The notes: generated by a model not told the origin, from the sequence alone. A DNA stretch of 64,000 nt from Gemmatimonadota bacterium (GCA_041477065.1 JBGOUQ010000017.1:3669-67668); one strand, 5' to 3'. Shown: positions 4,957 through 36,285, numbered from the stretch's first letter. A program made the numbers and translations.

Positions 4957-5015
4957 GAGCTGCCCCTGTGTCGAATTGTCTCACCCAGGCTTTGGCCCTA
5001 GATTGCGGCAACAAT

Positions 5016-9363: not shown

Positions 9364-9364
9364 A

Positions 9365-10000
9365 GTGCGAGGGCTCGCGCTCCTCGCGATGGTGGTTGTT
9401 GCCGCGGCACCCGCCGCGGCGGCGACCCAATCTCCTTCGCTCTCGATCACTGTCGAGCGCGAGACGCCGCGCATCCAGACCACCGCGCTGCTCGCCGACG
9501 GCAAGTACCTGGCGCTAATGCGCTCCGGGTTCCCCCTGCGGCTGCACTATCGTCTGGAGCTGTGGCGGGTGCGCTCGGGTTGGTTCGACCAGTTCGTACG
9601 AGAGGCCACCTGGGACGCCCTGGCCCGCCACGATCCCCTGGCCGACGACTTCGTGCTGATCCGCAGCGGCGGCTCGGTGAAGCGCTACGTCACCCCCGAG
9701 GATCTGGCGCGCGCGCTCGAAATCCCCTATCGCGTCACCCTCGCCCCCAAAGCGGGGGGGGGGGATGGGCGGTTCTACTTCCTCTGCCGGCTCGACGTCG
9801 CGACGCTGAACGACACCGACCTGGAAGAGCTGACGCGGTGGTTGAAGGGAGACGTGAGCCCGGCGGTGTCGGGCCAAGGCAGCGTGGGAGATGCGCTGGC
9901 GCGGGGGTTACAGCGTGTCCTGGTCCGCATCGCGGGGCTGCCCCGGCTCACGCTGGAGGCGCGCTCCACGGAATTCCGCCCGGCCGCGCCGGCGCGCTAG
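9365..10000 (+). CDS. DUF4390-like exported protein
   Basis: Frame of ORF 9320..10000. GTG 9365 lies 2 nt after the upstream stop (VRGLALLAMVVVAAAPAAAATQ is signal-like). Central LRLHYRLELWRVRSGWFDQFV...FYFLCRLDVATLNDTDLEEL resembles DUF4390. Confidence 0.55.
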   Translation: MRGLALLAMVVVAAAPAAAATQSPSLSITVERETPRIQTTALLADGKYLALMRSGFPLRLHYRLELWRVRSGWFDQFVREATWDALARHDPLADDFVLIRSGGSVKRYVTPEDLARALEIPYRVTLAPKAGGGDGRFYFLCRLDVATLNDTDLEELTRWLKGDVSPAVSGQGSVGDALARGLQRVLVRIAGLPRLTLEARSTEFRPAAPAR

Positions 10001-15408: not shown

Positions 15409-15425
15409 CGGCGGGGGCGAGCGGG

Positions 15426-17585
15426 TCAGGGCGTGAGCGCCGGGCCGAGGACGCGGTGCACCGGGCACTCCTGGGTGGGTTCCGTGCCCGGATAGAACCA
15501 CTCCCAGCGGTGCAGCTTCTGCGGGCAGAACGGTGTGGCGAGGTAGCCGGTCGAGTCGTCCACCTCGCGCGTCACCAGCGAGTCGGGCCGGGTCCAATCG
15601 GCTGGAGCCGGGCGCCGGTCGTAGACGTCGCGCATGAACGACGTCCAGGCGGGGGCCACGATGCGTCCGCCGCCCGCGTTGTGGTCGAGGATGCGGCGCT
15701 GATAGTCGTAGCCCATCCAAATCCCGGCCACCATCTCCGACGTGTACCCGATGAACCAGGCATCGGTATAGTCGTTGGTCGTCCCCGTCTTGCCCGCGGC
15801 GGGCAGGGTGAAGCCCGCACCCCACACTGCGCTGTAGGCGGTGCCGCGGCGGATCACATCCTTCATCATATCCACCATCAGCCAGGTGTGCTCGGGGTCC
15901 ATCACCAGCTCGGTGACCGGCCGCGGCTGCCAGAGAATGGTGCCGCGCCGGTCCTCGACCCGCAGGATGCCCTGCGGGACGGCGCGGGTGCCGAGCGTCG
16001 CGAACGCGGAGTAGGCGGCGATCATCTCGATGGGCCGCACGCTGGCCGCACCGATGTGAATCGCGGGAAACGCGCCGATCGGCGTCGTGAGGCCGTAGCT
16101 CTTCGCCTCCCCGATCACCGTCTGCTCCCCCAGCGCCATGCCCAGCTTGATCGTCGCCAGGTTGCGGGAGCCGTACAACGCTCTCCGCATCGTGATCTGC
16201 CCCCAAGTCGAGTCGTCGTCGTCCTTGGGATTCCACAGGCTGCTGTCGAGCTGCATGATCGGCTGGCTCAAGGGCGTGTCGTCGAGCATCTCCGTCACGG
16301 GATGGCCGGCGCGGACGGCGGCCGAGTAGACGAACGGCTTGAACGTCGAGCCCGCCTGGCGGGTGGCCTGGACGACGCGATTGAACTTGGAATCCTCGAA
16401 GTCGCGGCCGCCGATCATGGCGCGGATGTAGCCGGTGTTCGCCTCGAGTGCGAGGAACGCTCCCTGGAGGTACGGGGTGAACGAGCCGTGGTCCTCGCCG
16501 TTGGCGCGGGAGGACTCGATGTAGTCGCGGTAGGTGACGGCGCCGGACGGGAGCTTGGCGTACACGCCGGACTCGACGGCGTCGAGCTGGGCTTGGAGCG
16601 CGCGCTCGGCGGCCTCCTGCATGTCGAGGTCGAGGGTGGTGTAGATGCGCAGGCCCCCTTCGTACAGGTCGCGGCCGAAGCGCGCGTCAAGCTGGCCGCG
16701 CAGCCATTCCACGAAGTACGGCGCGACGTCCCCGTAGCTGGTGCGGTTGGTCGTCAACATCAGCGGATACGCTTTCCAGTACTCGGTCTCCTCGGGGGTG
16801 AGGAAGCCCTGGTCGCGCATCAAGGTGAGGACGAGGTTGCGGCGCCGCACCGAGCGGTCGGGGTGCAGCCGCGGATTGTAGGAGGTCGGCGCCTTGGGGA
16901 TCGCGGCGAGGGTCGCGGACTCGGCGACGTTCAGATCGCGGGCCGACTTGCCAAAGTAGATCTGGGCCGCCGCTTCGACGCCGTGGGCGCCCGCGCCGAG
17001 GTCGATCTGATTCAGGTACAGCTGGAGGATGGTGTCCTTGGGGAAGTTGCGCTCGATCTCCAGCGCGACGCGGGCCTCCTTGAGCTTGCGGGTGAGCTGC
17101 TTCTGCCGGCTGATCTCGTCGGGGAAGATGTTCCGCGCCAGCTGCATCGTGATCGTCGAGAACCCCTGGCTGTAGCCGAGGGAGACGATGTTGGCTTTGA
17201 AGGCGCCGAGGATGCGCCAGTAGTCGATGCCGTGATGCGCGTAGAAGCGCTTGTCCTCGGTGGCGACGAACGCCTGGCGCATAGGGAGCGGGATCTGGCT
17301 GAGCGGCACGACGGTGCGGCGCTCGGCACCGTACTCGGCGATCAGCCGGCCGTCGGCCGCATAGACCTTCGACGTCTGGGTCTGCCCGCCGCCCTGCAGC
17401 GGAAAAAGCCGCGAAATGCTGGGACAGCGTTCGGCCGCGCACACCCGCGTCCACGAGCCGTAGGCGACCCCCACGCCGTAGCCGCACGCGAGCAGCACCG
17501 CGGCGATGAGGCGCCCGCGAATCTTGCGGTCCTGCCACCAGCGCGCGGGGTCGGGGAGCGGGATGGGCGAGGAGAGCGTGGCCAT
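15426..17585 (-). CDS. class A penicillin-binding protein (transglycosylase/transpeptidase, PBP1A-like)
   Basis: Within ORF 15426..17747. ATG 17585 (MATLSSPIPL..., then a TM segment). GT51 motifs EDKRFYAHHGID and RKLKEA. Transpeptidase motifs STFKP and KTGTT. Confidence 0.9.
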   Translation of the reverse strand: MATLSSPIPLPDPARWWQDRKIRGRLIAAVLLACGYGVGVAYGSWTRVCAAERCPSISRLFPLQGGGQTQTSKVYAADGRLIAEYGAERRTVVPLSQIPLPMRQAFVATEDKRFYAHHGIDYWRILGAFKANIVSLGYSQGFSTITMQLARNIFPDEISRQKQLTRKLKEARVALEIERNFPKDTILQLYLNQIDLGAGAHGVEAAAQIYFGKSARDLNVAESATLAAIPKAPTSYNPRLHPDRSVRRRNLVLTLMRDQGFLTPEETEYWKAYPLMLTTNRTSYGDVAPYFVEWLRGQLDARFGRDLYEGGLRIYTTLDLDMQEAAERALQAQLDAVESGVYAKLPSGAVTYRDYIESSRANGEDHGSFTPYLQGAFLALEANTGYIRAMIGGRDFEDSKFNRVVQATRQAGSTFKPFVYSAAVRAGHPVTEMLDDTPLSQPIMQLDSSLWNPKDDDDSTWGQITMRRALYGSRNLATIKLGMALGEQTVIGEAKSYGLTTPIGAFPAIHIGAASVRPIEMIAAYSAFATLGTRAVPQGILRVEDRRGTILWQPRPVTELVMDPEHTWLMVDMMKDVIRRGTAYSAVWGAGFTLPAAGKTGTTNDYTDAWFIGYTSEMVAGIWMGYDYQRRILDHNAGGGRIVAPAWTSFMRDVYDRRPAPADWTRPDSLVTREVDDSTGYLATPFCPQKLHRWEWFYPGTEPTQECPVHRVLGPALTP

Positions 17586-21682: not shown

Positions 21683-22768
21683 GTGAAAGCCGGCACACCG
21701 TTCACACTGGTCTTGGGCGGCGGCGGGATGAAGGGGGTGGCGCACGTGGGCGTCCTCCAGGCGCTGCTCGAGCGCGACCTCATCCCCTCCCACATCGTCG
21801 GATCGAGCGTGGGCTCCTTGATCGGGGCCGCGTGGGCCGCGGGCCGCAGCATTCCCGAGCTGCGCGAAGTGGCGATGGGGCTGAAGCGCAAGGACGTCTT
21901 CGCCGTCGCGCACGCCGACATGGCGTTCAAGCGCATGCGCTCCCCCGCCTTGTTCCGGCGCGAGCCGCTCGAGCACCTGATCGCCCGCCTGATCGGGGAC
22001 CGCTCCTTTACCGACCTCAATCGGCCGGTGGTCGTGAACACGGTGGACATCAACTCGGGAATGCAGGTGTTCTGGGGCCTGCCGGGTCTCGACGAGGTGA
22101 AGGTCGGCGACGCCGTGTTCGCCTCGTGCGCGCTGCCGGGCTACCTGCCGCCGCGCGAGATCCGCGGACGCTTCTACGTGGACGGGGCCACCGTGGACAA
22201 TCTGCCGGTGGGCGCCGCGCGAGCGTTGGGAGGGCAGTGCGTCCTCGCCGTGGACGTCTCGGCGTCGAGCGCGCTGCGCGCCGATACGCAGGACGACGGG
22301 TTCGCGGCGGTGTTCGCGCGCGCGACCGAGGTAGCGATGCAAACGCTCCTCGAGCTCCGGATGCGCTCCTGGACCACGCCGCCGGTCTATTACATCCACC
22401 CCCGCGTCGAGCACATCTCGATGTTCTCCTTCAATCATCTGCGCGAGGTGGTGGAGGAAGGCTATCGCGCCACCAGCGCCGCGCTCGACCGCGCCGTCGA
22501 GTGGCCGGCGCCGGGAGAGGCCGGGGTCTACCCCAAGCGCCGGGTGATCGTGCGCGTGGAACGGGAGCGCTGCATCGGGTGCGGCGCCTGCCTGGTGCAG
22601 GGGCCTCCCGGGATGTTCGTGCTCGATGCGGAGGGCAAAGCGGTGGTGACGACGCCGGAGCAGGAGTGGTCTCCGACGGGCGGGGGATTCATCCGCCACT
22701 GCCCGACCTACGCGATCAGCGCGCGGCCGGCGCCGGCGGTCGTCGAAACGCTGCGTCGATCCGGATGA
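21683..22768 (+). CDS. patatin-like phospholipase fused to a C-terminal single-cluster 4Fe-4S ferredoxin-like domain
   Basis: Frame of ORF 21500..22768. GTG 21683 is needed to include GGGGMKG. Lipase serine GSSVGS; catalytic DGA (VDGATVDN). C-terminus CIGCGACLVQGPPGMF...HCPTYAI. Confidence 0.8.
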   Translation: MKAGTPFTLVLGGGGMKGVAHVGVLQALLERDLIPSHIVGSSVGSLIGAAWAAGRSIPELREVAMGLKRKDVFAVAHADMAFKRMRSPALFRREPLEHLIARLIGDRSFTDLNRPVVVNTVDINSGMQVFWGLPGLDEVKVGDAVFASCALPGYLPPREIRGRFYVDGATVDNLPVGAARALGGQCVLAVDVSASSALRADTQDDGFAAVFARATEVAMQTLLELRMRSWTTPPVYYIHPRVEHISMFSFNHLREVVEEGYRATSAALDRAVEWPAPGEAGVYPKRRVIVRVERERCIGCGACLVQGPPGMFVLDAEGKAVVTTPEQEWSPTGGGFIRHCPTYAISARPAPAVVETLRRSG

Positions 22769-23849
22769 AATCGCGCGCCACCCGATCCCAGTTGTAGTAA
22801 GTCTCCACCGCCCTGCGCCCGGCCGCGCCCATGCGCCGGCGCCGCTCCGGATCCCGCAACAGCGACACGATCCCCGCCGCGATCGGCTCGGGGGCCGTCG
22901 GGTCCACCAGCACGCCGGTTTCCCCGTCGCGCACGGCGTCGGGCACGCCGCCCGAGCGGCCCCCGACGACGGCGAGGCCCGACGCGGACGCCTCGACCAG
23001 CGAGATGCCGAACCCCTCCACGAGCAGATCGTGGCGACGCGAAGCGCCCACGTACAGGTCCGCCGCGTTGTACAGCGCCGGCAGGTCGGCGTCCGCCACC
23101 GGCCCCAGGAACCGCACGGCGTCACCCAGCCCGAGCTCCGCGGCCAGTGCGGTGAGCTGCGGTAGCCGCGGGCCGACGCCCGCCACGGCGTACCGGACTG
23201 CCGGAACGGCCGCGCGCACGGTGGGCAGCGCGCGGATCGTCATGTCGATGCCCTTGTGCCATTCCAGCCGGGCCACGGTGAGCAGCCAGGGGCCGCCGGC
23301 CAGGCCGTACTTCGCCCGCACCGCGGCCGCATCGAGCCCGGGCCGGAAGTGTGCCGGCTCGGTGCCGAGCGGCACGACTTGAACCTTGGCCGCGAGGTCG
23401 GGGCGCTCGAGCAATCCGTAGACCGACCGCGCCAGCCCAGCGGTCCAGGAGCTGTTGGCGACGAGCACCGCCGCGTCGTTCACCAGCGCGCCAGCGGTCC
23501 GGCGCTTGAAGCGACTACGGCGGATCTTAGCGTCGAGCAACAGCAGCTCCGTGCCGTGCACCACGACTCCGTAGGGAATGCCGTGGCGGCGCGCCAGCCA
23601 CCACGCCGGGTAGCCAGCCGGCTTCAGCTCGCCGCACCAGGTGAAGTCCGGACGCCAGCGTCGGGCGAGGGCGCCGGCGCGCCAGGTCCACAGGGCGAGG
23701 CCGTTGAGGGTGCGGAGTCGGGTCGCGCGGATGCCGACGCGGTCGATCGGCTGCGGGAAATCGGCGTCGCTCGCGGCGCTCTCGGGATATGCGCCGGTCG
23801 ACACGACGAGCGACTGCGGGGGGTAGCGGCGCGCCAGCTCGCCCATCAT
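22716..23849 (-). CDS. GT4 glycosyltransferase (paralog 1; true N-terminus probably upstream, see findings)
   Basis: EGFGISLVEASASGLAVVG motif. Paralogous to the next gene along its whole length. Homology continues 19 codons upstream of ATG 23849, up to the TAG of the upstream gene, with no ATG/GTG/TTG. Confidence 0.8.
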   Translation of the reverse strand: MMGELARRYPPQSLVVSTGAYPESAASDADFPQPIDRVGIRATRLRTLNGLALWTWRAGALARRWRPDFTWCGELKPAGYPAWWLARRHGIPYGVVVHGTELLLLDAKIRRSRFKRRTAGALVNDAAVLVANSSWTAGLARSVYGLLERPDLAAKVQVVPLGTEPAHFRPGLDAAAVRAKYGLAGGPWLLTVARLEWHKGIDMTIRALPTVRAAVPAVRYAVAGVGPRLPQLTALAAELGLGDAVRFLGPVADADLPALYNAADLYVGASRRHDLLVEGFGISLVEASASGLAVVGGRSGGVPDAVRDGETGVLVDPTAPEPIAAGIVSLLRDPERRRRMGAAGRRAVETYYNWDRVARDFIRIDAAFRRPPAPAAR

Positions 23850-23909
23850 GCGGGCGATCCCGCCGCCGTGGGGCGGGAAATTGAAGGACAGCAGCAGCGT
23901 GGTCAGTGC

Positions 23910-25082
23910 CTACGCCACCTGCGACTCGATCTCGCGCAGATCCTTGATGACCCGGTTCCAATTGAAGTAGGTCTCCACCGCCTTGCGGCCCGCCTGCCCC
24001 AGCCGCCGCGCCAGCAGCTGGTCGCTGACGAGCCGCGCGAGCGCGTCGGCCACCGCCGCCACGTCGTCGGGCTCGACCACGACGCCCGTTTCCCCATCGC
24101 GCACCGCCTCGGCGAGTCCGCCGCTCCGCCCGGCCACGACCGGCAGTCCGCAGGCGCTCGCCTCGGCGAGCGCGATGCCGAAGCCCTCGACGCGCGTCCC
24201 GTCTGCCCGCCGCGAGACCCCCAGGTACACGTTGGCGGCGTTGTAGAGCGCGGGCAGATCGTGGTCCGGCACCGTGCCGGCGAAGCGGACGACGTCGGTG
24301 ATCTTCAACTCCTCGGCGAGCTTCTTGTAGGCGCTCTTCTGTTTGCCCGCGCCGACGACGAGGTAGTGGACGTCGATCCCCTGCGTGCGCACCTGCGCCA
24401 CCGCTCGGAGCACCGTGTCCACACCCTTGTACGGCTCGAGCCGCGCGACGGTGATGGCCCAGAGATCGCCGTTCAGACGGTAGCGGGCGCGCACGTCGCG
24501 CGTGTCCAGGTCGGGCCGGAACTGCTCGGGGTCGGTGCCGAGGGGCACGACCCGGACGTGCTCGGCCAGCGGGTCGAGACCCAGCTCGCGCAGCACCTTC
24601 TGCGCCTGCTCGCGGGTCCACTGGCTGTTGGCGACGACGGACACAGCGGAGCCGAGCAGCGCCTTGAGCGTGCGCCGCGCCCAGGCGGAGTGATGGATCG
24701 CGTGCAGCTCTTTCAGCATGTCCCCGCCGTGGACCAGCACGCCGTACTTGGTGCCGACGCGCTCGTGCGCCCACTTGGCCGTGTAGGCCGACGGTCGCAC
24801 CGAATCGCACCAGGCGAAGCGCGGCTTGTAGTGGCGTGCCAGCGTGGCGACGCGGCGAGACCAGAAGAGCAACCCGCCGAGGTTCTTCAGCGCCCGGGTG
24901 GAGATCGGGAGGCGGTCGATGACCGCCGCGTACCGGCCGTCGGTCTCCGTCGAGTCGCGATGCCGGCCGGTGGAAACGAGCAGCTCGCCGCGAGGGTAGC
25001 GGCGCGCGATCTCGCCCATCATGCGGGCGACCCCGGTCTGCATCGGCGGGAATTCGTCGGTCAGGAGAAAGGTCTTAGCCAT
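23910..25082 (-). CDS. GT4 glycosyltransferase (paralog 2)
   Basis: Within ORF 23910..25115. ATG 25082 (MAKTFLLTDEFPPMQTGVARMMGEIARRYP). EGFGIALAEASACGLPVVA. Confidence 0.85.
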   Translation of the reverse strand: MAKTFLLTDEFPPMQTGVARMMGEIARRYPRGELLVSTGRHRDSTETDGRYAAVIDRLPISTRALKNLGGLLFWSRRVATLARHYKPRFAWCDSVRPSAYTAKWAHERVGTKYGVLVHGGDMLKELHAIHHSAWARRTLKALLGSAVSVVANSQWTREQAQKVLRELGLDPLAEHVRVVPLGTDPEQFRPDLDTRDVRARYRLNGDLWAITVARLEPYKGVDTVLRAVAQVRTQGIDVHYLVVGAGKQKSAYKKLAEELKITDVVRFAGTVPDHDLPALYNAANVYLGVSRRADGTRVEGFGIALAEASACGLPVVAGRSGGLAEAVRDGETGVVVEPDDVAAVADALARLVSDQLLARRLGQAGRKAVETYFNWNRVIKDLREIESQVA

Positions 25083-25827
25083 CGGCGCGCCGCTGCCGCT
25101 CCCACAGGCGGGCATACTTGAGGAAGACGCTCACGGCGGCGAGCCCGCACAGGACGACGCCGTGCCACCCTTCGAGGATCCCCAGCTGCAGCACGTAGGT
25201 CCGGAAAAAGGTGAACGGCGGCCGCACGACCAGGTCACCGAAGCGCGCCCGACGACCGCGATCCCATAGGTCCTCCGCCCCCCAGGCCGCATACCGGGTG
25301 AGCTTCTCCAGGTGCTCGGCGAGGTCGCGGTAGGGCACGTGCTCCACGGGCGCGCGCAGCCGACCCACGTTCGCCACCGGCTCGAGCCCCTCGTGCACCC
25401 GCCGTTCCACGAATCGGCGGTCGCGGCGGAACAGGCGGACCGACCAGTCCGTGCCCCACCCCGCGTACCGCATGGTGCGTCCGAGATACACGTTGCGGCG
25501 CCTGACGGCGTAGGCTTCGTGCCGCGGGGCCGCCACGACCTCGGCAAGCTCGCGCTCCAGATCGGTGCCGATCCGCTCGTCGGCGTCGAGGGCGTACACC
25601 CATTCGTGCCGCGCCGCGGCGATTGCCTCGTTACGCTGACCGGCAATCGTTGCCGCCCGGCTCTCGATCACGCGGGCGCCTGCCCCCCGCGCCGCCACCA
25701 CGGTGCCGTCACTCGAGCCGCCATCCGCCACGATCACCTCGCCGGCCCAGGCGAGCTGCCCGATGCACTCCGCGATGTGCGCCGACTCGTTGAGGGTCGG
25801 AATGATGACCGTGAGCGGCGTCGGCAT
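25075..25827 (-). CDS. GT2 glycosyltransferase
   Basis: Within ORF 25075..26094. ATG 25827 (MPTPLTVIIPTLNESAHI...ADGGSSDGT...ALDADE). Confidence 0.85.
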   Translation of the reverse strand: MPTPLTVIIPTLNESAHIAECIGQLAWAGEVIVADGGSSDGTVVAARGAGARVIESRAATIAGQRNEAIAAARHEWVYALDADERIGTDLERELAEVVAAPRHEAYAVRRRNVYLGRTMRYAGWGTDWSVRLFRRDRRFVERRVHEGLEPVANVGRLRAPVEHVPYRDLAEHLEKLTRYAAWGAEDLWDRGRRARFGDLVVRPPFTFFRTYVLQLGILEGWHGVVLCGLAAVSVFLKYARLWERQRRADG

Positions 25828-25840
25828 GCGTTCCCTAATC

Positions 25841-26956
25841 CTAACGGGGGCGTTCCCCGCGGAGCAATGCGCGTCGCTCCAGCGCCTCCCGGTACACCTC
25901 CTCGGTTCGCTCGACGGTGCGCTCGAGGGTAAACGAGCGGCGCACGAGCTCGCGGCCGGCCCCGCCGAGCCGCGCCAGGGTAGGCGCATCGTCAAGCAGT
26001 CGCGCCAATGTCGCCGCCCACGCCTCGGCATCGCGCGGCGGGACGAGCACCCCGGTCGCATCCGGAGTGATGAGGTCGGGATTCCCGCCGGCATCGGAGG
26101 CGACGACCGGCACGCCGAGGGCCATCGCCTCGAGCAGGGCCTGCGACAAGCCCTCGATCCGGGAGGGGAGCGCCACCAGCGTGGCTAGCCGGTAGTAGGC
26201 GAGCGGGCGCTCGGTGAACGGAATGAACACGGCCCGGTGACGCGAGGGCAGCGCGGCGGTGAGGGCGGCGAGCTCGGCGTCGGGCTCAAGCCCGACGCAC
26301 GCCAGGACGACGGGGCGCGAGAGCTGCGCCAGCGCCCGCAGCACGACGTCCTGGTCCTTCCGGCGCGCGACCACCAGGATCACGGTGCGGTCGCCGACCT
26401 CGCCAAGCGCGGCGCGGGCGGCGGCGATCTCATCTCCGGTGGGCGGCGCGTCCACGCGGGCCACATCGATTCCGTTGGGCACGACGCGCAGCCGGCCGCC
26501 AGGATGGAGCCGCCGGCGCAGGGCGCGAGCCACCGCCGAGCTGACCGCGATCGTGCGGTCGGCGGCGTGCCCGACGGCGAAGAGCTCGAGGGGAGACGTG
26601 CGCGGCATGGTGCGACGGGTGACGACGAACGCCTGAGGCAGCCTGGCGCGCCACCGCAGCCAGGTGAGCGCGCGGCGGTCGAGCGTCGCGTGGCTGTTGA
26701 GCACGTCCACGCGCTCCCGCGCGATCACGTCGGCGAGCCGCGCCGCCAGGCGCTCGAGGCGCGAGAAGTCGAGCGGCACGTGGCCGATCCCCGCGTCGCG
26801 CGCCATTCGGGCGAGCAACGACTCCGCCCGGCATCCCAAGAGCACGCGGTGGCCGCGGTGCTGCAGGTGCTGGCCGAGGTTGAGAATCGATTGCGTCGAG
26901 CCGGCGCCGTCACCCTGGTGAGTCAGCTGCAGCACGGTGAGCGGGGCGTGTGGCAT
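25841..26956 (-). CDS. GT4 glycosyltransferase
   Basis: MPHAPLTVLQLTHQGDGAGSTQSI...; EGLSQALLEAMALGVPVVASDAGG. Confidence 0.85.
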   Translation of the reverse strand: MPHAPLTVLQLTHQGDGAGSTQSILNLGQHLQHRGHRVLLGCRAESLLARMARDAGIGHVPLDFSRLERLAARLADVIARERVDVLNSHATLDRRALTWLRWRARLPQAFVVTRRTMPRTSPLELFAVGHAADRTIAVSSAVARALRRRLHPGGRLRVVPNGIDVARVDAPPTGDEIAAARAALGEVGDRTVILVVARRKDQDVVLRALAQLSRPVVLACVGLEPDAELAALTAALPSRHRAVFIPFTERPLAYYRLATLVALPSRIEGLSQALLEAMALGVPVVASDAGGNPDLITPDATGVLVPPRDAEAWAATLARLLDDAPTLARLGGAGRELVRRSFTLERTVERTEEVYREALERRALLRGERPR

Positions 26957-26985
26957 GGCTCGAAGGTAGTTATACTCTACGCCCG

Positions 26986-27933
26986 ATGCACATCGCGGTC
27001 GCGTCGCATCACCGCCTGCCGGTCCAGGGCTACGGCGGCACCGAGCGGATCGTCGCCGCGCTCGTACGCGGGCTCGCGGCGCTGGGCCACCAGGTGACGC
27101 TGATCGCGGCCACGGGCACGAAGCTCCCCGAGGCGAGCGTCGTCGAGGTTCCCCCCAAGCGACTGCGCGACCCCGCGCTCGACTTCACCCGGCTGGTCCC
27201 GCCCGACGCCGATGTGCTGCACGTCCACTTCCCCGTCCGCAAGCCTCCCACAGGTGGGATGCCCTTTCTGCAGACGCTGTACGGCAACCTCAAGCAGGGC
27301 GAGCCGGTGCCGCCCAATACCGTCTTCCTCTCGCGCAACCACGCCGCGCGCAACGGCCGCGACGCGTTCGTGTATGCCGGACTCGACCCCGCGGAGTTCA
27401 TCTTCCGCGACCGCAAGGAGGACTACGACTTCTTCATCGGCCGGCTGCACAGCGCCAAGGGGTACCACTGGGCGGTCGAGGGCGCCAAGCGCTCGGGACG
27501 GCGCTTGATCCTGGCCGGCGGCTGGCGGCCTTCCTTCACGGGCCGGATCAAGTACGTGGGGGAGGTGGACGGGAAGGAGAAAGCCGAGCTGCTCGCCGGG
27601 GCCCGCTGCCTCTGGATGCCAGCGCTGTGGGACGAGCCATTCGGGCTCACCACCATCGAAGCGCTGTTCTCGGGCACCCCCGTATTGGGGACGCGGCGCG
27701 GCGCGTTGCCGGAAGTCCTCACTCCCGAGGTCGGCGCGCTGTGCGACACGCTGGACGAGATGATCGAAGCGTCCCGCGACATTCACACCCGGGTGCCCGC
27801 GGTATGCCGCGCCCACGCGGAGCGGTACTTCACCCACCGGGTGATGGCCGAGGAGTACCTCCGGGTGTACCGGCACCTGCGCGAGACTACCGTCCTGCCT
27901 GCGGGGCGGCCGACGCCGCAGGCGCCGCACTGA
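26986..27933 (+). CDS. GT4-like glycosyltransferase
   Basis: Within ORF 26950..27933. ATG 26986 (MHIAVASHHRLPVQGYGGTERIV). EPFGLTTIEALFSGTPVLG. Divergent from the previous gene across only 29 nt. Confidence 0.8.
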   Translation: MHIAVASHHRLPVQGYGGTERIVAALVRGLAALGHQVTLIAATGTKLPEASVVEVPPKRLRDPALDFTRLVPPDADVLHVHFPVRKPPTGGMPFLQTLYGNLKQGEPVPPNTVFLSRNHAARNGRDAFVYAGLDPAEFIFRDRKEDYDFFIGRLHSAKGYHWAVEGAKRSGRRLILAGGWRPSFTGRIKYVGEVDGKEKAELLAGARCLWMPALWDEPFGLTTIEALFSGTPVLGTRRGALPEVLTPEVGALCDTLDEMIEASRDIHTRVPAVCRAHAERYFTHRVMAEEYLRVYRHLRETTVLPAGRPTPQAPH

Positions 27934-27940
27934 GCCCCCC

Positions 27941-28201
27941 CTATTCGTCGGGGTCGTCCACGATGTCGCTGACGAAGGGGTCCTCGCCGGTTCTCGCCGT
28001 GATGACCAGCAGCCACCCGAGCGCCGCGTTGCCGACGCACGCCACCACGACCGCCACCCAACCCAACGCACCCGGGCACCTGCCGTTCGCGACACACCGG
28101 TAGATCGTCGCGCCCAGGAGGATCACGCCGGCGCCGGCGAGGCCCGGTCCGAGCACGCCGCCGAGGATCCGGAACGTGCGGCTCACCCGCTGCGGCCGCA
28201 T
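27941..28201 (-). CDS. small membrane protein (86 aa, two hydrophobic segments)
   Basis: Within ORF 27941..28381. ATG 28201 (MRPQRVSRTFRILGGVLGPGLAGAGVILLG...WVAVVVACVGNAALGWLLVI). Starts 6 nt after the upstream stop. Confidence 0.4.
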   Translation of the reverse strand: MRPQRVSRTFRILGGVLGPGLAGAGVILLGATIYRCVANGRCPGALGWVAVVVACVGNAALGWLLVITARTGEDPFVSDIVDDPDE

Positions 28202-28206
28202 CACAC

Positions 28207-29724
28207 TCACACGGCGGTCCTCTCGAGGAGGCGCTCGGCGCTCGCGACCGCGTGCAGCAAGCAAAACGGGTAGAAGTGAACCAGATGGCGGCCGAAGCCG
28301 GTGTGGATGATGAACAGCGTGCTCATGTGCGGCTGGCCCAGGAACGTGAGGGCCGCGTACGCGGCGTAGGTGGCGACCCACCCCGCCAGCCCGGCGAGCC
28401 CGAAGCGCCGTGCCAGTGCCGCGCGCGTTGCCTCACCCTCACCCCCCACCCCCCCCCCTCCTCCTCGACGCGCCACCCAGATCACCACGATCAGCCAGCT
28501 CCACGCGAACGCCCCGTAGCCGTAGTGGGAAAACACCTGCCCCTGTACGCCGTACGCCAGCCGTGCCATCGCCCGCAACGCGGACACCGCTGCTTCGGAT
28601 TGTGCGGCCAGTGTCGGGGCGAACAGCGCGGGCGCATGCACCGCCGCGGGCCGCAGCGTCCAGCTGAGGTATCCCACAGCCGCGCCGGCGAGCGGGGCCC
28701 ACAACCGCCAGTCGCGACGCTGGGGAGGAGACGCGAGCCAAATGAGCACGCCCATCGCCACGACGAATTCGGGAAGCCCGTCCCGGCGGATGAGCGCGAC
28801 CGCAGCCCCGGCCACCGCCCCGATCGTGAGCGCGAGCGCCCGCGTCGGGATGAGCGCGCCGTCATCGGTCGCCACAACGATCGCAACGGCGATCGCCAGC
28901 ATCACCGGCACGCCGGCGTAGGCCGTGATCTGGCCCTTGAGAACGTGGTCGGTGACCAGCAACCACACCAGCCCCCACGGGGCGAGGGCCGGTGCCACGC
29001 GCCGCAGGAGATAGTAGAACAGCAGTACGAAGGCACCGAACAGCAGCAGCGGGAGCAGGCGGCCCTGGAAGGTGGGATCGCCCACACCCATCCACAGTAT
29101 CACCGAGTGGAGCGGCGGGCGGGCGGGATCCAGGCAGTCGAATATCCCGCTCAGTGCTCCGCGCTCGGCGAACTTGAACGCCCGGCACGCCCAGATCTCC
29201 ACGGCGTCGGTGTAGTGATACGGAAACACGAGGTGCGGGACCTCGGCGAGGAAAAACGCCAGCGCGAGCCACAACGCGGGATGGACGCTTCGCGAGACGG
29301 CCGGCTCGGTGGCGGTCGTACGATCCTCAGATGGGGAGGGGCCAGTGCGGCGCACCCAGACGCCCGCGATGAAGGCGACGCCGAGCGCCACCCACGTGAC
29401 TGCGGGGGCAAGCCGACCCGTGGCGAGCGCCCAGCCGTAGTCGACGAGCGCGACAACCCAGGTAAGCGTCAGGAACCGAAGCGCCCACGCGGCCGCTGAG
29501 CGGTGGCCGCGGGCAGGGAGCCACCACCACGCGGCCAACGCGAGCAGCCCGCAGAGCAGCAGATCGGCGCCCAGTCCCGCCGACGGGCCCACCGGCCGGA
29601 CCCCCGCCGCCAGTCCTTGCTGGAACATCACGGCGGCGCGCCAGGTGCCGATGCCGACCTGCACGGCCGTGAGCAGGCCGAGGACGATCCAGGCCGCGCG
29701 CGATCGGCCGGCAGCGGCGGTCAC
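28207..29724 (-). CDS. polytopic membrane protein, GT-C-fold glycosyltransferase / O-antigen-polymerase-ligase-like (tentative)
   Basis: Within ORF 28207..30195. GTG 29724 (VTAAAGRSRAAWIVLGLLTAV...) lies 2 nt after the upstream stop. More than 10 hydrophobic segments. Loop motif YHYTDAVEIWACRAF. Confidence 0.5.
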   Translation of the reverse strand: MTAAAGRSRAAWIVLGLLTAVQVGIGTWRAAVMFQQGLAAGVRPVGPSAGLGADLLLCGLLALAAWWWLPARGHRSAAAWALRFLTLTWVVALVDYGWALATGRLAPAVTWVALGVAFIAGVWVRRTGPSPSEDRTTATEPAVSRSVHPALWLALAFFLAEVPHLVFPYHYTDAVEIWACRAFKFAERGALSGIFDCLDPARPPLHSVILWMGVGDPTFQGRLLPLLLFGAFVLLFYYLLRRVAPALAPWGLVWLLVTDHVLKGQITAYAGVPVMLAIAVAIVVATDDGALIPTRALALTIGAVAGAAVALIRRDGLPEFVVAMGVLIWLASPPQRRDWRLWAPLAGAAVGYLSWTLRPAAVHAPALFAPTLAAQSEAAVSALRAMARLAYGVQGQVFSHYGYGAFAWSWLIVVIWVARRGGGGGVGGEGEATRAALARRFGLAGLAGWVATYAAYAALTFLGQPHMSTLFIIHTGFGRHLVHFYPFCLLHAVASAERLLERTAV

Positions 29725-29725
29725 G

Positions 29726-30589
29726 TCAGACGAGCCGGTAGTTCCGGAACTCGAATACGCGCGCACCCGTGAGCCGCTCGATCCAGTCCGAGAGGTAGAA
29801 GCGGAGGTGGTCGGGCCGGAAGTGCCGCGGCCCGATGACGCGCTCGGGGTCGTGGGCACGCGCGGCGATCCAGTCGCGCGCGACGCTGGGATGCTCGCCG
29901 GCGAACGGCCGGAGCAATGGGAGCCAATCGAGGTACCCCTTCGCCTGCTCGCGCGCCGAGCGCTCTCGGCTCCAGGGATAGATAGTCTTGGAGATCTCGT
30001 ATTTCTCGCGGATGGCGTGCGCCGGCCGGGCCCATCCGTAGTGGAACATGGCCGCGTCGGTGACCCGTGCGCGGATCTTCCGGTAGCCGGGCCCGACGCG
30101 GAACCCTTGCGCCCCCTGGTAGGGGCGGATGTCCCGGTCGAGCCGGATGCAGCGCACCTCGCGGCGGTACCAGCGGCGGCTGGTCGCGACGGCATCGAAT
30201 CCGCCGTAGAAGTGCAGGTATTGCACGAGCAGGCCCTCGACGCGCTCGTCGCCGTCCCACTCCGCGACCTTTTCCTGGAGGATGCGGGCGCCCCGCTCGT
30301 GCAGCACCTCGTCGGCCTGGATGTAGATGCCCCAGCGGCCGCGGCAAGCGGCCATCGCCTTGCGGGTCTCGATGGACAGCATCTCGTTCTTTTTGGTGAA
30401 GTCCCACTCGCTGTCCACGATCTGGACGCGCGGGTCGGCCACCGACGCCACCAGGTCGCGCGTCTCGTCCTCGGACCTCCCCACGTTCACCACGACCTGG
30501 TCGCACACCTCCAGCACCGAGCGGATGGCCGGGACGATGGGGAAGTCGAGCTTGATCGCGTTGCGGACGATCGTGAAGCCGCACAGCAT
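29726..30589 (-). CDS. GT2-like nucleotide-diphospho-sugar transferase family protein
   Basis: MLCGFTIVRNAIKLDFPIVPAIRSVLEVCDQVVVNVGRSEDETRDLV...IYIQADEVLHE, typical of a widespread GT-A-like family. Confidence 0.65.
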   Translation of the reverse strand: MLCGFTIVRNAIKLDFPIVPAIRSVLEVCDQVVVNVGRSEDETRDLVASVADPRVQIVDSEWDFTKKNEMLSIETRKAMAACRGRWGIYIQADEVLHERGARILQEKVAEWDGDERVEGLLVQYLHFYGGFDAVATSRRWYRREVRCIRLDRDIRPYQGAQGFRVGPGYRKIRARVTDAAMFHYGWARPAHAIREKYEISKTIYPWSRERSAREQAKGYLDWLPLLRPFAGEHPSVARDWIAARAHDPERVIGPRHFRPDHLRFYLSDWIERLTGARVFEFRNYRLV

Positions 30590-30594
30590 CGCGG

Positions 30595-32397
<1,803 letters not shown>

Positions 32398-32399
32398 TC

Positions 32400-33974
32400 T
32401 CACCGGACTCCGCGGCGCGGCGTCAGCAGAGCCACCGGCAGGATCACCTCTTCGGGAGTCACCCCGCCGTGGAGGAACGAGCCGCGATACCGGGCTTGAT
32501 ATTCCCGAAGCTTGGTGGGGTAGACGAAGAAGCGGTCGCCGGTCGCGAGCAGCATCCGCACGCCGAGTCCCATCCCCGGGAGGCCGTACGACTTGAGATC
32601 CTCGACCAGGATGGACGACTCGGGATCCTCGGCGCGCAGGTCCTCGCCGAATTTGTAGCGGAGGTTGGCGGTCGCGTCCCGCTTCGCGTACACCGTGGCC
32701 GGGGTCTGGCAGTGGATCGAGCCGTGGTCGGTGGTCAGCAGGACGGGCACGCCGCGCCGCTCGGCCTCCTGCAGCGCCGCCAGCACGGGCGAGCGCTCGA
32801 ACCAAGTGCGCGTCAGCCCGCGCAGCGCGTCGGCGTCGCGCGCCACTTCGTAGAGGATCGCGCTCTCGGAGCGCCCGTGCGTCAGCTGGTCGATGAAGTT
32901 GAAGACCAGCGCCGTGACGCCGTCCTGGGCGAGGTGCGCCGGCAGCCGCCGCAGCAGGTCCCCGCCGTCCACGGAGCTGAACAGCTTCTCGTAGCGCACC
33001 GGCACCGGCTTCCCCATCAGGTCCTGGAGCTGCTCCGTGAGCAGCTCGGCCTCATGGGCGTTGAGGCTCTCCTCGTCGGAGGGGGCACCCCACCATTCGG
33101 GGTGGCGCGCCGCGATCTCCATCGGGAACATCCCGCTGAAGATGGAGTTGCGGGAGAACGGCGTGGCGGTCGGGACGATGCTGAAGTAGTGCGACTCTTC
33201 GACGTCGAACAGCGGCGTCACCAGGTCGCGCAGCGTCTCCCACTGGTCGAGCCGCAGGCAATCGACCACGATGAACAGCACCCGCCCGGTGGACTTCAGC
33301 ACCGGCACCAGGAACTCGGCGCCGACGTCCACCGAGAGCGGCGGCCGGTCCCCCTCGGGGTTCGCCAGCCATTTCGGGTAGTGCCGGCGGAAGAACTCGG
33401 CGAAGTCCTTGCGCAGGCTCTCCTGCAGGTTGCGCAGCGCTTCAGAGAGGCCGGGCTCGGCGGCCTCTGCGAGACGCACCTCCCAGCGGGTGAGCTCCAC
33501 GACCAGCTCGATCCACTCACGCCAGGCCATCGTCGCGCCGCGCCGCGCCGCGAGCTCGCGGAACCGCGTCACGAAGTCCCGCGCCAGGCGCTGCTGGCGG
33601 ATGCGGTCGCCTTCGAGCAGCCGGGTGACGACGGAGAGGATCTGCCGGGGATGCACCGGCTTGACGAGGTAGTCGTCCACCTCGATGCCGATCGCTTCTT
33701 TCAGCGTTCCCTCATCCTCGCTCTGCGTGACCATGACGACGGGCATGGCGGGATCGATGGCGCGGATCTCCCCCAGCAGCTCGAGACCGCGGCGGCCGGG
33801 CATCTGCTCGTCAAGCAGCACCACGCTGTAGGGTTGCCGGCGCAGCAGGGCCAGGGCGTCGTCTCCGTGCGCCGCCTGTTGCACGGAGAACCCCTGTTGT
33901 TCGAGGAACCGGCGGTGCGCCGCGAGACCTTCAACCTCGTCGTCGACCCAGAGAATGCTTTTCGGGCGGGGCAT
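32400..33974 (-). CDS. response regulator with C-terminal PglZ (alkaline-phosphatase-like) domain, PorX-like
   Basis: Within ORF 32400..34703. ATG 33974 (MPRPKSILWVDDEVEG...VVLLDEQMPG). PglZ-type motifs VLFIVVDCLRLDQ, TATPFSRNS, LLTTDHGS. Confidence 0.8.
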   Translation of the reverse strand: MPRPKSILWVDDEVEGLAAHRRFLEQQGFSVQQAAHGDDALALLRRQPYSVVLLDEQMPGRRGLELLGEIRAIDPAMPVVMVTQSEDEGTLKEAIGIEVDDYLVKPVHPRQILSVVTRLLEGDRIRQQRLARDFVTRFRELAARRGATMAWREWIELVVELTRWEVRLAEAAEPGLSEALRNLQESLRKDFAEFFRRHYPKWLANPEGDRPPLSVDVGAEFLVPVLKSTGRVLFIVVDCLRLDQWETLRDLVTPLFDVEESHYFSIVPTATPFSRNSIFSGMFPMEIAARHPEWWGAPSDEESLNAHEAELLTEQLQDLMGKPVPVRYEKLFSSVDGGDLLRRLPAHLAQDGVTALVFNFIDQLTHGRSESAILYEVARDADALRGLTRTWFERSPVLAALQEAERRGVPVLLTTDHGSIHCQTPATVYAKRDATANLRYKFGEDLRAEDPESSILVEDLKSYGLPGMGLGVRMLLATGDRFFVYPTKLREYQARYRGSFLHGGVTPEEVILPVALLTPRRGVR

Positions 33975-34031
33975 CGGGGCGAAAGCTAGTCCGACTGGCG
34001 GAGCGCGGCAACGCGCCGATACATTGCCCGC

Positions 34032-35027
34032 GTGCTGACCATCCTGTTGGTCCGCTTCAGCTCCATCGGGGACATCCTGCTGACCACGCCGCTGGTGCGC
34101 ACGCTGCGGCGCCGCCATGCCGAGGCGCGGCTGGTCTTCGTCACCAAACGCGCCATGGCCCCCCTCGTCGCCGACAACCCCCACCTCTCGCAGGTCGTGA
34201 CCCTGGAGCCCGACGAGCCGGTGCGCCACCTCGCCGAACGGCTCCGCCCCCTGAACGCCACACACGGCCTCGATCTGCACGGCAGCCTGCGCAGCGCGGC
34301 GCTGCGCCTGCTGGTGCGCGCCCAATGGAGCGGCTACTCCAAGCGCAAACTCGCGCGCACGCTGCTCATCGCCACGAAGCTCGACCGTTACGGCCGCCGC
34401 GTGAGCGTCGCCGAGCGCTACTTCGAGGCGGCGCGCGAGCTCGACGTCCGGCCCGACGGCGGCCCGCCCGAGTTCCACCTCGGCCCGGGGGCGCGCGAGC
34501 GCGCCGACGCCTGGCTGGCGAAGCGCGGCCTGGCGGGCGGCGCGCGCCTCGCCGCGCTCGCACCCGGGGCGGCGCACGCCACCAAACGCTGGCCGGTCGG
34601 CCACTGGATCGCACTCGCCGACCGGCTGCGCGCCGCGGGATTGACGCCCATCGTGCTCGGCGGCCCGGACGACCGCGGGCTCGCGCAGCAGCTCGCCGCC
34701 CATGCCGAGAGCGCAGCCGGCGAGTTCTCGCTCCAGGAAACCGGAGCGCTCCTGTCACGCGCGGCGGTGCTCGTGACCAACGACACCGGCGTGATGCACA
34801 TGGCGACCGGCGTCGGGACCCCGGTCGTCGCCCTGTTCGGACCGACCGTGGAGCAGTTCGGCTTCTTCCCATACGCGCCGGCGCCGAGCACGGTGCTCCA
34901 ACGTGATCTCGACTGCCGTCCCTGCTCCGCCATGGGCACCGCGACCTGCCCGCTCGGCCACCACCGCTGCCTCGCGGATATCGCGCCGGCCGACGTGATG
35001 CGGGCGGTGGGTGGAGCGGTGGCGTGA
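34032..35027 (+). CDS. GT9 glycosyltransferase (ADP-heptose:LPS heptosyltransferase-like)
   Basis: MLTILLVRFSSIGDILLTTPLVRTLRRRH...; GAAHATKRWP; VTNDTGVMHMA. Confidence 0.8.
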   Translation: MLTILLVRFSSIGDILLTTPLVRTLRRRHAEARLVFVTKRAMAPLVADNPHLSQVVTLEPDEPVRHLAERLRPLNATHGLDLHGSLRSAALRLLVRAQWSGYSKRKLARTLLIATKLDRYGRRVSVAERYFEAARELDVRPDGGPPEFHLGPGARERADAWLAKRGLAGGARLAALAPGAAHATKRWPVGHWIALADRLRAAGLTPIVLGGPDDRGLAQQLAAHAESAAGEFSLQETGALLSRAAVLVTNDTGVMHMATGVGTPVVALFGPTVEQFGFFPYAPAPSTVLQRDLDCRPCSAMGTATCPLGHHRCLADIAPADVMRAVGGAVA

Positions 35028-35407
35028 CGCAGGCGACCACGCTGGGCGAGGAACGCCTGATCGCGCTGCTCGCGGCCGCCGGGCGAGGACCCAAGCGCGA
35101 TGGCCTGTACGCGCTGTGGCTGGTGCTGCGCGCGGCCGAAGCGCTGCTTCCCCCACACCCGCTGGGAGGCCGGAGCCACCGGCGCCGTCTCCAGGCGCTC
35201 GACGCCCGGCTCGCCAGCCTGGCGTTGCCGGCGCCCCTCAAGCGGGCCCTGCTGGCCGCGCGGCAGCACCTCGAGCCTGCGACCGCCGGGGCCTCCGCGC
35301 TCGTGCTCTCCCAGCTGGTCGCGCCGGCCCGGGACGTGCTGGGCGCGGAAGCCGCGGACGCCATTGCGGGTGCCGCGCGCGCGGCCCGCGTACATTTATC
35401 GGCATGA
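35024..35407 (+). CDS. hypothetical Ala/Leu-rich helical protein (127 aa)
   Basis: GTG start in a GTGA overlap with the GT9 stop and an ATGA overlap with the next gene. G/C-rich third positions. The alternative frame (35011..) is an Arg/Pro/Gly-rich shadow. Confidence 0.5.
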   Translation: MTQATTLGEERLIALLAAAGRGPKRDGLYALWLVLRAAEALLPPHPLGGRSHRRRLQALDARLASLALPAPLKRALLAARQHLEPATAGASALVLSQLVAPARDVLGAEAADAIAGAARAARVHLSA

Positions 35408-36285
35408 GCACCCGGCGGCTGCAGAAGCGACCCTCCCTCGAGGGGCTGGTCCAGCAGGTGGATCAGCGCCGGCGGGGTGAAGTCACGGGGGACACGATCC
35501 CCTCGGGATTCGCCTCGCTCGACAAGTTCTTGGGCGGAGGGCTTCGGCGGCGCGACCTCATCGTGCTGGGCGGTGACGTCGGCGCGGGGAAGTCGGCGCT
35601 GGCGCTGGGGTTCGCGCTGCGGGTGGCGCAGCAAGGGACGGGGGTCGCGTATCTCTCGGGCGAGATGGACGAGGAGCGGCTGATGGAGCGCGCGCTCGCC
35701 ATCGAAGGCCGCGTGTCGGTGGACGAGCTGCGCGGAGGCGGCGGCGCGTTGCACGACCAGACGCGCGCCGGCATCGGCGCCGCAGCGGTGCGGCTACGCG
35801 GGCTGCCGCTCGCCATGCTGCCGCTCGCCGCCGACGACCTCGACGCGATGGCGGAGCGGCTCGATCCGCTGCGCCAGCTCGGCCTCGTGGTGATCGATTA
35901 CCTGCAGCTCGCGCCGCCGACGACGTCATCCGTCGCGCGCGCGAGCCAGGACGAAGATCTCGCCCTCGTGCTGCGGCGGCTCAAGGCGCTGGCGCTGGAG
36001 CGTCAGGTCGCGCTGGTGGTGGTGTCGCAGCTGCCGCGGTTCGCTCCCGCGCGCGAGAACCCGCGCCCGACCCTCGACGACTTCGGCCACCTCGGCGCCG
36101 TCAAGCAGCACGCCGACGTGGTGCTCGCGATCTTCCGGGAGGAGATGTACAACCCGGGCGGCGGGGTGGAAGGGGCGACCGAGCTGCTCGTCGCGAAGAA
36201 CCGCAACGGCCCAACGGGATTCGTGGACTTCTACTTCTACAGGCGCTGGATGCGGTTCGAGGACATGCTGGATCCCGACCGGTAG
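35404..36285 (+). CDS. DnaB-like helicase C-terminal (RecA-fold) domain protein lacking the DnaB N-terminal domain
   Basis: ATG 35404 (MSTRRLQKRPSLEGLV...IPSGFASLDKFLGGGL). Walker A GDVGAGKS. DnaB-specific VVIDYLQL, LKALALERQVALVVVSQL, VKQHADVVLAIFREEMY, LLVAKNRNGPTG. Only 293 aa. Confidence 0.8.
   Translation: MSTRRLQKRPSLEGLVQQVDQRRRGEVTGDTIPSGFASLDKFLGGGLRRRDLIVLGGDVGAGKSALALGFALRVAQQGTGVAYLSGEMDEERLMERALAIEGRVSVDELRGGGGALHDQTRAGIGAAAVRLRGLPLAMLPLAADDLDAMAERLDPLRQLGLVVIDYLQLAPPTTSSVARASQDEDLALVLRRLKALALERQVALVVVSQLPRFAPARENPRPTLDDFGHLGAVKQHADVVLAIFREEMYNPGGGVEGATELLVAKNRNGPTGFVDFYFYRRWMRFEDMLDPDR

Follow-up and report, generated by a model that had tools for sequence, protein, structure and literature searches.

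A porX-headed operon in a probable lipid A-core assembly and export locus of Gemmatimonadota, with a proposed coupling of PorX, lipopolysaccharide and secretion

In Bacteroidota, type IX secretion is controlled by PorX, a two-component response regulator that is also a Zn-dependent phosphodiesterase. Where a DNA-binding domain would be expected, it carries an enzyme domain, and there is debate about its outputs and its physiological substrate. We analyzed a 64,000-nucleotide (nt) stretch of DNA from a Gemmatimonadota bacterium (GCA_041477065.1, JBGOUQ010000017.1:3669-67668; hereafter the window, with positions counted from its first letter), in which porX heads an operon of five minus-strand genes (27941-33974). 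The next gene encodes an MsbA-like exporter, and we observed this pairing throughout the Gemmatimonadota. We interpret the region as a lipid A-core (lipopolysaccharide, LPS) assembly and export locus whose main operon is headed by porX, and we propose that PorX, LPS and secretion are coupled; we put the probability of this reading at about 0.55. Since LpxL-type and heptosyltransferase genes are present in loci of this kind, the glycolipid would most simply be ordinary lipid A-core, and the locus would serve the LPS core and no special anchor glycolipid. A first-pass annotation, made from the sequence alone, had suggested a direct link between the PorX family and the synthesis of a surface glycolipid, possibly the anchor for type IX secretion system (T9SS) cargo. 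That interpretation was partly supported: the link between regulator and exporter is robust and was found in all the Gemmatimonadota sampled, but it concerns one phylum only (0/68 loci elsewhere), and the function that we attach to it is a proposed one.

The first gene of the operon (32400-33974) encodes a 524-amino-acid (aa) protein composed of a receiver, a helical linker and a PglZ/alkaline-phosphatase-superfamily phosphodiesterase domain (Response_reg, E 1.9e-26; PglZ, E 9.4e-18). Its score against the NCBIfam model NF052313 (T9SS_RR_PorX) was 514.3 bits for a cutoff of 300, residues 6-520 covering profile positions 2-513 of 513, and it aligned end to end with the solved PorX proteins of F. 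johnsoniae (8TED, E 2e-110) and P. gingivalis (7PV7, E 2e-106). The motifs VVDCLRLDQ, TATPFSRN and TTDHGS, which the first-pass annotation had pointed out, are present in the translation and contain D238, T271, D416 and H417; these residues, together with D55, D362 and H366, are invariant across 82 PorX sequences. In P. gingivalis PorX, D58, T272, D361 and H365 are needed for phosphorylation, catalysis and Zn binding (PMC9757075), and their counterparts in the window protein are D55, T271, D362 and H366. Judged by the family score and the matches to crystal structures, the receiver-PglZ protein initially called PorX-like is more than that and qualifies as a bona fide full-length PorX orthologue.

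The neighbourhood of porX was compared in two scans. In the species-genome scan, an alignment of 43 diverse PorX sequences, obtained by a search of a representative library, was run against 185,579 genomes, and we considered the best 80 loci, which span the Fibrobacteres-Chlorobi-Bacteroidetes (FCB) superphylum. In the metagenome scan, the window PorX served as the query and returned 80 close relatives (L082-L161, 85-94% identity), for which all counts refer to contigs with room for the gene in question. An exporter gene was observed downstream of porX on the same strand in 12/12 species-genome loci labelled Gemmatimonadota or Longimicrobiales (L002-L013), at PorX identities of 51-73%. The two genes were directly adjacent in 11 of them, and in L005 a single opposite-strand penicillin-binding-protein gene stands between. 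The same order was found in 69/69 metagenome contigs, as well as in one long metagenome contig (L001) whose exporter gene shares the strand of porX and comes just after it; PorX identity ranges from 51 to 88% across L001-L013. In the 68 loci of the species-genome scan outside Gemmatimonadota, no exporter homologue was detected within 10 kb of porX. A locus labelled Gemmatimonadetes with 42% PorX identity and a tsaE gene beside porX (L066) was treated as another lineage or a mis-binned contig and not as a counter-example. Taken together, these results establish a robust porX-exporter pairing that is phylum-wide in Gemmatimonadota and occurs in no other phylum sampled.

The five open reading frames (ORFs) of the operon, counted from porX, are separated by 2, 5, 1 and 5 nt. 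The co-directional, tight packing described in the first-pass annotation was confirmed, and public gene calls on GCA_041491145.1 (contig JBGPUK010000008.1) list the same products, of 524, 600, 287, 505 and 89 aa; this contig also encodes an identical copy of the 287-aa protein. The porX/exporter junction reads CGG TGA GA ATG, which leaves a 2-nt gap, or a GTGA overlap if the GTG start is used. In other Gemmatimonadota, our ORF calls place the two genes either in a 4-nt overlap or at a distance of 1-35 nt. Such junctions suggest that porX and the exporter gene are translationally coupled, that their products are made together, and that the genes may be co-transcribed.

Beyond the exporter, the gene order depends on the lineage. 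In L005, L007-L011 and L013, the porX-exporter pair continues, at operon-like spacing, into genes for an LpxL-type lipid A late acyltransferase, a GT2 glycosyltransferase and a DUF3108 protein. The LpxL-type gene after the exporter was identified in eight loci in all, by PF03279 in L007, L010 and L011 (E 1e-41 to 8e-51) and by tblastn in L004, L005, L008, L009 and L013. The exporter-LpxL junction is a 4-nt overlap in L011 and L013 and extends up to 150 nt in L007, and one GT4 gene separates the two genes in L004. No lpxL homologue was found in the window. The likely ancestral operon of the Gemmatimonadota is porX-msbA-lpxL-GT2-DUF3108, and in the family of the window its tail was likely replaced by a variable glycosyltransferase island. 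In seven Gemmatimonadota loci, among them L007 (15231-16070) and L010 (15175-15876), the porX-msbA-lpxL-GT2 cluster ends with the conserved DUF3108 gene, a position that suggests an LPS-related role for this uncharacterised family. On the Longimicrobiales chromosome of L007, a gene about 2 kb upstream of porX (5770-7938) encodes a TPR protein of 722 aa that carries a GWxTD domain (TIGR04514).

The second gene of the window operon (30595-32397) encodes a 600-aa ATP-binding cassette (ABC) half-transporter of the type IV exporter fold, in which a transmembrane domain is fused to a nucleotide-binding domain (ABC_membrane, E 1.5e-43; ABC_tran, E 4.4e-33). Its best NCBIfam family, over the full length, was TIGR02203 (MsbA_lipidA), with 523.5 bits. 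Among the half-transporters of the PDB, the best match was MsbA (3B5X, E 4e-108), nearly equalled by Sav1866 (E 1.5e-104); the alignment to MsbA structures covers residues 79-598. Compared end to end with E. coli MsbA (3B5W), the exporter showed 35% identity overall, 24% in the membrane domain and 50% in the nucleotide-binding domain. In the structural literature on MsbA with LPS, R78, R148 and K299 of E. coli MsbA are the basic residues that hold the lipid A phosphates; a Lys occupies the R78 position as well as the K299 position in 14/14 Gemmatimonadota exporter sequences. The msbA gene originally came to light as a multicopy suppressor of htrB/lpxL; in E. coli it is classically linked to lpxL (htrB) and is encoded with lpxK. 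The presence of an LpxL-type gene behind the exporter in other Gemmatimonadota lineages is the strongest evidence for reading the exporter as a lipid A flippase, with lipid A as its presumed substrate.

Outside Gemmatimonadota, the place of the exporter is taken by another gene. A TsaE/UbK-family gene (PF02367) lies downstream of porX on the same strand in 54/64 loci with enough downstream sequence, and in about 26 loci it is followed by a TsaB-like gene, a GNAT gene and accD. By contrast, neither the window nor L001-L013 and L082-L161 yielded a tsaE/ubK gene next to porX, and it is the MsbA-like gene that stands there. The Gemmatimonadota thus differ from the rest of the superphylum in that the ubK neighbour is exchanged for msbA, and the two arrangements are mutually exclusive. 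The pairing of porX with tsaE spans at least ten FCB phyla (L014-L081; for example L075:11576-12073). According to a 2026 paper, UbK1, a TsaE-family protein, is a porX neighbour reported within P. gingivalis strains only and phosphorylates PorX on Y79 (PMC13241743). The conservation of porX-tsaE/ubK is much wider than this published report. A possible relation between the presence of Y79 and the adjacency of ubK to porX was rejected, since the Y79 column was variable in all phyla (82 sequences).

Other neighbours of porX were observed in the same loci. In nine of them (L019, L035, L043, L047, L049, L055, L058, L064 and L069), mostly metagenome-assembled genomes labelled Ignavibacteria, Chlorobi or Bacteroidota, the T9SS translocon gene sprA/sov stands directly upstream of porX on the same strand, giving a sprA-porX-tsaE arrangement (TIGR04189, 1077 bits at L043:2927-9943). 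A GAF-HisKA-HATPase histidine kinase gene adjoins porX in 19 loci from Latescibacterota, Eisenbacteria, Poribacteria, Zixibacteria and others (L015, L020-L022, L025-L029, L031 at 15190-16644, L033, L038, L041, L045, L054, L062, L066, L071 and L080), and this kinase is a candidate for the PorY-type cognate kinase. In P. gingivalis, by contrast, the arrangement is an orphan one. Three loci carry an FCB-type porX under labels that look wrong or mark deep lineages, namely L025 (Limnocylindria) and L042 and L050 (Hyphomicrobiales, about 38-40% G+C).

Overall, these data are consistent with the following model. PorX would be phosphorylated on D55 by an unlinked PorY-type kinase. Through co-expression with the MsbA-like exporter, the amount of PorX would follow LPS export, and the secretion and surface attachment of cargo bearing a C-terminal domain could be kept in step with LPS supply. 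A GT-A glycosyltransferase would be provided by the gene after the flippase and, in this strain, a GT-C-like membrane glycosyltransferase by the next one, while the heptosyltransferase gene would be transcribed divergently from the same 57-nt control region. The coupling between PorX and LPS export may be regulatory or physical. A functional coupling is plausible because of the UbK1 precedent and of known ties between the T9SS and LPS: T9SS cargo is anchored to anionic LPS (A-LPS; PMC8545088), and a functional T9SS is required for lipid A 1-phosphatase activity (PMC12704123). Both links are unexplained, and the hypothesis of a connection between PorX and LPS fits them. We found no report in the literature of a PorX-MsbA or PorX-LPS gene link. 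The individual parts belong to known families; what is new is the setting of a known regulator in a phylum-wide porX-msbA(-lpxL) operon. We give only a small chance to a stronger version, in which PorX and the MsbA-like flippase would form a functional unit, PorX sensing or controlling LPS export and acting as a checkpoint that couples LPS supply to cargo secretion and anchoring. PorX might then contact the cytoplasmic domains of the transporter, as it contacts PorL in P. gingivalis, or its alkaline-phosphatase-superfamily domain might act on an LPS-pathway intermediate at the inner leaflet.

Several observations weigh against the reading of the region as an LPS locus with coupled PorX. Gene order is the sole evidence for the coupling of PorX and exporter; in other phyla, porX lies among housekeeping genes (tsaE, tsaB, GNAT, accD) with a partner that differs by phylum, and mutation of the Y79 phosphosite left secretion unaffected (PMC13241743). 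The MsbA-like half-transporter of the first-pass annotation stands in its architecture, its top family and its 2-nt distance from porX, but its score lies under the curated MsbA cutoff of 602, the HepA family comes near to that score with 498 bits, and at the R148 position the 14 Gemmatimonadota exporters have Gln, Ser or a variable residue. No T9SS core gene was found among the annotated genes of the window, only a sub-threshold cargo-like domain. A review lists Gemmatimonadetes among the phyla that may have a T9SS, which makes it only a possible one (PMC11285876), and we found no literature on T9SS core genes in Gemmatimonadota beyond this one sentence. A scan of 27500-34500 for sigma-70-type promoters and intrinsic terminators found none, such a scan being uninformative for this phylum.

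These observations leave room for other explanations. The adjacency could be an incidental housekeeping one, porX lying in an essential, constitutively expressed operon with no functional tie between PorX and LPS export; the arrangement would have been established early in the Gemmatimonadota lineage, operon inertia then maintaining it. We regard this as possible but, on balance, unlikely. It agrees with the frequency of housekeeping neighbours in the other FCB loci (54/64), with the change of partner between phyla, which implies that no single neighbour is needed for PorX function, and with the fact that everything downstream of the exporter is lineage-variable. It agrees less well with the persistence of the pair at 51% PorX identity, in overlapping or near-touching frames, while other neighbours turn over; moreover, in P. 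gingivalis the neighbour from the tsaE family turned out to phosphorylate PorX and is thus functionally tied to it (PMC13241743). The nature of the ABC protein is a separate matter: instead of a lipid A flippase, it might be a dedicated exporter that works specifically with PorX and carries, for example, a glycolipid, a polysaccharide or a signalling molecule. The score below the TIGR02203 cutoff, the near-MsbA similarity to HepA and Sav1866, the loss of conservation at one of the three lipid A-contacting positions, and the glycosyltransferase genes that follow the exporter in the window without lpxL could all be explained in this way. However, an LpxL-type gene lies close behind the exporter in L005, L007-L011 and L013, and with one intervening GT4 gene in L004, the heptosyltransferase gene is always divergent in the family of the window, and MsbA is the top full-length family match, which together make a dedicated exporter quite improbable.

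PorX might also have been redeployed from type IX secretion in the Gemmatimonadota, as an envelope or LPS regulator or enzyme in organisms possibly without a T9SS. The absence of any T9SS core gene from the annotated genes of the window and from the sampled Gemmatimonadota loci points in this direction, as do the lack, in these loci, of the sprA, kinase and ubK neighbours found in other phyla and the sub-threshold score of the cargo-like domain. We nevertheless consider redeployment very unlikely, with PorX well above its equivalog cutoff, every functional residue intact, and Gemmatimonadetes listed among the possible T9SS phyla (PMC11285876). The cargo-like domain bears on the same question. 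It belongs to a secreted M14 carboxypeptidase (55337-57529, minus strand; Peptidase_M14, E 9e-61), to which the first-pass annotation had attributed a T9SS/FlgD-type C-terminal domain. Residues 649-724 match the T9SS sorting domain TIGR04183 weakly, at 14.1 bits for a cutoff of 23 (E 0.036), but over its whole length (profile positions 3-70 of 72) and at the extreme C-terminus. A match to FlgD_ig was obtained at E 0.056, and phmmer gave weak matches to the C-termini of ORFs in L028 and L044. The region is a possible T9SS type A C-terminal domain, with a match that stays sub-threshold.

Returning to the reading as a lipid A-core assembly and export locus, we considered the remaining genes of the operon. 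The third gene (29726-30589) encodes a 287-aa glycosyltransferase candidate, previously described as a GT2-like transferase. Its Pfam matches were sub-threshold (PF13704, 22.7 bits for a cutoff of 27.5, E 1.4e-4; PF00535, 16.9 bits for 23.3), an NCBIfam search gave no match and a PDB sequence search nothing usable. An AlphaFold model was obtained with a mean predicted local distance difference test (pLDDT) of 81 and a predicted template modelling score (pTM) of 0.82. A Foldseek search with this model returned 237 PDB matches at E <= 0.001, and those listed are GT-A/GT2 enzymes, headed by SunS (E 2e-11, template modelling score (TM) 0.53), ThuS, WrtF, TarS and SpsA. The modelled protein is therefore GT2-like at the fold level, its nearest solved structures being GT2 enzymes, though no curated family accepts it and the Pfam GT2 gathering score is not reached. 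Its homologues number in the thousands; the closest 120 share 79-100% identity, and the named ones are annotated as hypothetical. In this family, Q91-A92-D93-E94 is invariant after a beta-strand and may correspond to the DxD-type metal/nucleotide-sugar motif. In 50/50 close relatives the gene comes after the exporter; more distant Gemmatimonadota lack it. The porX-msbA-glycosyltransferase synteny on which the first-pass proposal depended thus holds for the exporter in all Gemmatimonadota loci and for the GT2-like gene in the close relatives, but does not extend to the variable glycosyltransferase island or to the fourth gene of the operon.

This fourth gene (28207-29724) encodes a polytopic membrane protein of 505 aa that had been described as GT-C/O-antigen-ligase-like. 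No Pfam, NCBIfam or PDB sequence match was found for it, and its 56 detectable homologues are, where named, all labelled Gemmatimonadota. With its AlphaFold model (pLDDT 88.6, pTM 0.92), Foldseek retrieved only GT-C proteins at TM >0.3, namely EmbB (probability 0.84, TM 0.38), EmbC, PIG-M, STT3, AglB and PimE; these matches, at TM 0.30-0.38, are not significant (E at least 0.2). Pfam GT-C families gave weak DUF2142 matches in 2/42 family members and none otherwise. The invariant D173, C180 and C197 of the family sit in the loop after the fifth helix, which should face the periplasm according to the charge distribution of the loops. From this weak structural resemblance, the protein is probably GT-C-like. 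The O-antigen ligase/polymerase part of the description was rejected, with no Wzy_C match at E <= 1 in the 42 family members, and so was an unrelated transporter, a possibility that had been raised as a check, since the transporter matches in Foldseek reached only TM of about 0.1. One family member (P0427) showed amino-acid-permease Pfam matches (E 5.5e-7) that are lacking in the other 41 and are probably a composition artefact. Since it is present in only 4/41 close relatives, the 505-aa gene is a strain-variable accessory gene and no fixed part of the porX-exporter unit. The last ORF (27941-28201), of 86 aa, or 89 aa with the start at 28210, corresponds to the two-transmembrane protein of the first-pass annotation. 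The ORF, its two hydrophobic segments and a public gene call agree with that description, but conservation was not shown: there was no Pfam match, and tblastn found no homologue, not even where the 505-aa gene is present (five loci). Its status as a gene is doubtful, and it may be no conserved gene at all.

On the other side of porX, a 57-nt intergenic region (33975-34031) separates it from a divergent plus-strand gene for a GT9 heptosyltransferase (34032-35027; RfaF/WaaF-like; PF01075, E 6e-32). Its score against TIGR02195 (heptosyltransferase II) was 125.9 bits for a cutoff of 134.6, and the gene was present and divergent in 71/71 close relatives. In an alignment of 68 distinct relatives, this intergenic region showed two conserved blocks: CAATGTA(C/G), at about 8 nt from the start of GT9, and TAGCTTT, at a distance of about 8-15 nt from the ATG of porX. 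The insert between them varies from 0 to >100 nt. The blocks seem to resemble the Bacteroidota -7 promoter element, TAnnTTTG, and would then imply nearly leaderless transcripts. Two further genes, co-directional with GT9 (35024-36285), encode a 127-aa hypothetical protein and a 293-aa DnaB_C/KaiC-like ATPase (PF03796, E 2.9e-50), and both are conserved upstream of porX in close relatives.

Downstream of the operon, Pfam confirmed the five additional glycosyltransferase genes, four GT4 and one GT2, that the first-pass annotation had placed across the operon from GT9 (22716-27933). They are a plus-strand GT4 (26986-27933; Glycos_transf_1 and Glyco_transf_4), followed on the minus strand by a GT4 (25841-26956), the GT2 (25075-25827) and two GT4 (23910-25082 and 22716-23849). 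The far flank is a conserved plus-strand gene for a patatin-like phospholipase (21683-22768; PF01734, E 5e-34), which likewise marks the end of the island in L001 and in many metagenome loci. Relatives differ in how many GT4 and GT2 genes lie between the GT-A gene and the patatin gene and in how these are ordered, and in L003 the island is absent and the patatin gene comes directly after the exporter. The island is a variable region, as usual for surface-glycan loci. The G+C content of the window is about 71%, and the named closest relatives of its proteins carry Gemmatimonadales labels, mainly from soil metagenomes, and we read the source as a soil member of this order. Elsewhere in the window, 4968-10000 encodes an NtrB/NtrC-like pair of histidine kinase and sigma-54-dependent response regulator, after which come genes for an Omp85-family protein and a DUF4390 protein; the NtrB-like kinase has its own paired regulator and is therefore no obvious PorY. 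A 576-aa protein in which a c-type cytochrome domain is fused to an FTR1-type iron permease is encoded at 53125-54855.

Conserved neighbours of porX have already been productive, since the adjacency of ubK1 led to the finding that UbK1 phosphorylates PorX (PMC13241743). The MsbA-like gene, joined in several lineages by an LpxL-type gene, is a second, phylum-wide and mutually exclusive neighbour, and it provides a testable hypothesis that links PorX signalling with LPS biogenesis. It also opens a way into the envelope biology of the Gemmatimonadota, a phylum that is common in soil and has few cultured representatives. Should operon inertia alone account for the adjacency, the result would be the correct annotation of an LPS core locus.

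Compared with known systems, the window PorX has the same three-part architecture as P. gingivalis PorX from end to end, at about 36-42% identity. The two differ in context, ubK1/tsaE being the next downstream gene in P. gingivalis whereas porX heads an msbA-like/LPS operon here, and the UbK1 target Tyr79 of P. gingivalis is not conserved. The exporter resembles E. coli MsbA in its linkage, MsbA being linked to lpxL and the exporter of other Gemmatimonadota lineages likewise to an LpxL-type acyltransferase gene; it is unlike E. coli MsbA in that its upstream partner is a response regulator and no lipid A enzyme, in its sub-cutoff score and in the non-conserved R148 position. The 505-aa protein shares with the GT-C enzymes EmbB/EmbC, PimE, PIG-M and STT3/AglB an Asp that opens a loop of two short helices after a transmembrane helix, but differs from them by four extra N-terminal helices and by having no large soluble domain. 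At the scale of the locus, the waa-type LPS core clusters are the closest in outline, with a GT9 heptosyltransferase, several GT4 and GT2 genes and strain-variable content between conserved flanks. Unlike them, the window has no Kdo transferase or Wzy_C member among the genes scanned, and contains a GT-C-like protein of a family whose named members all belong to Gemmatimonadota.

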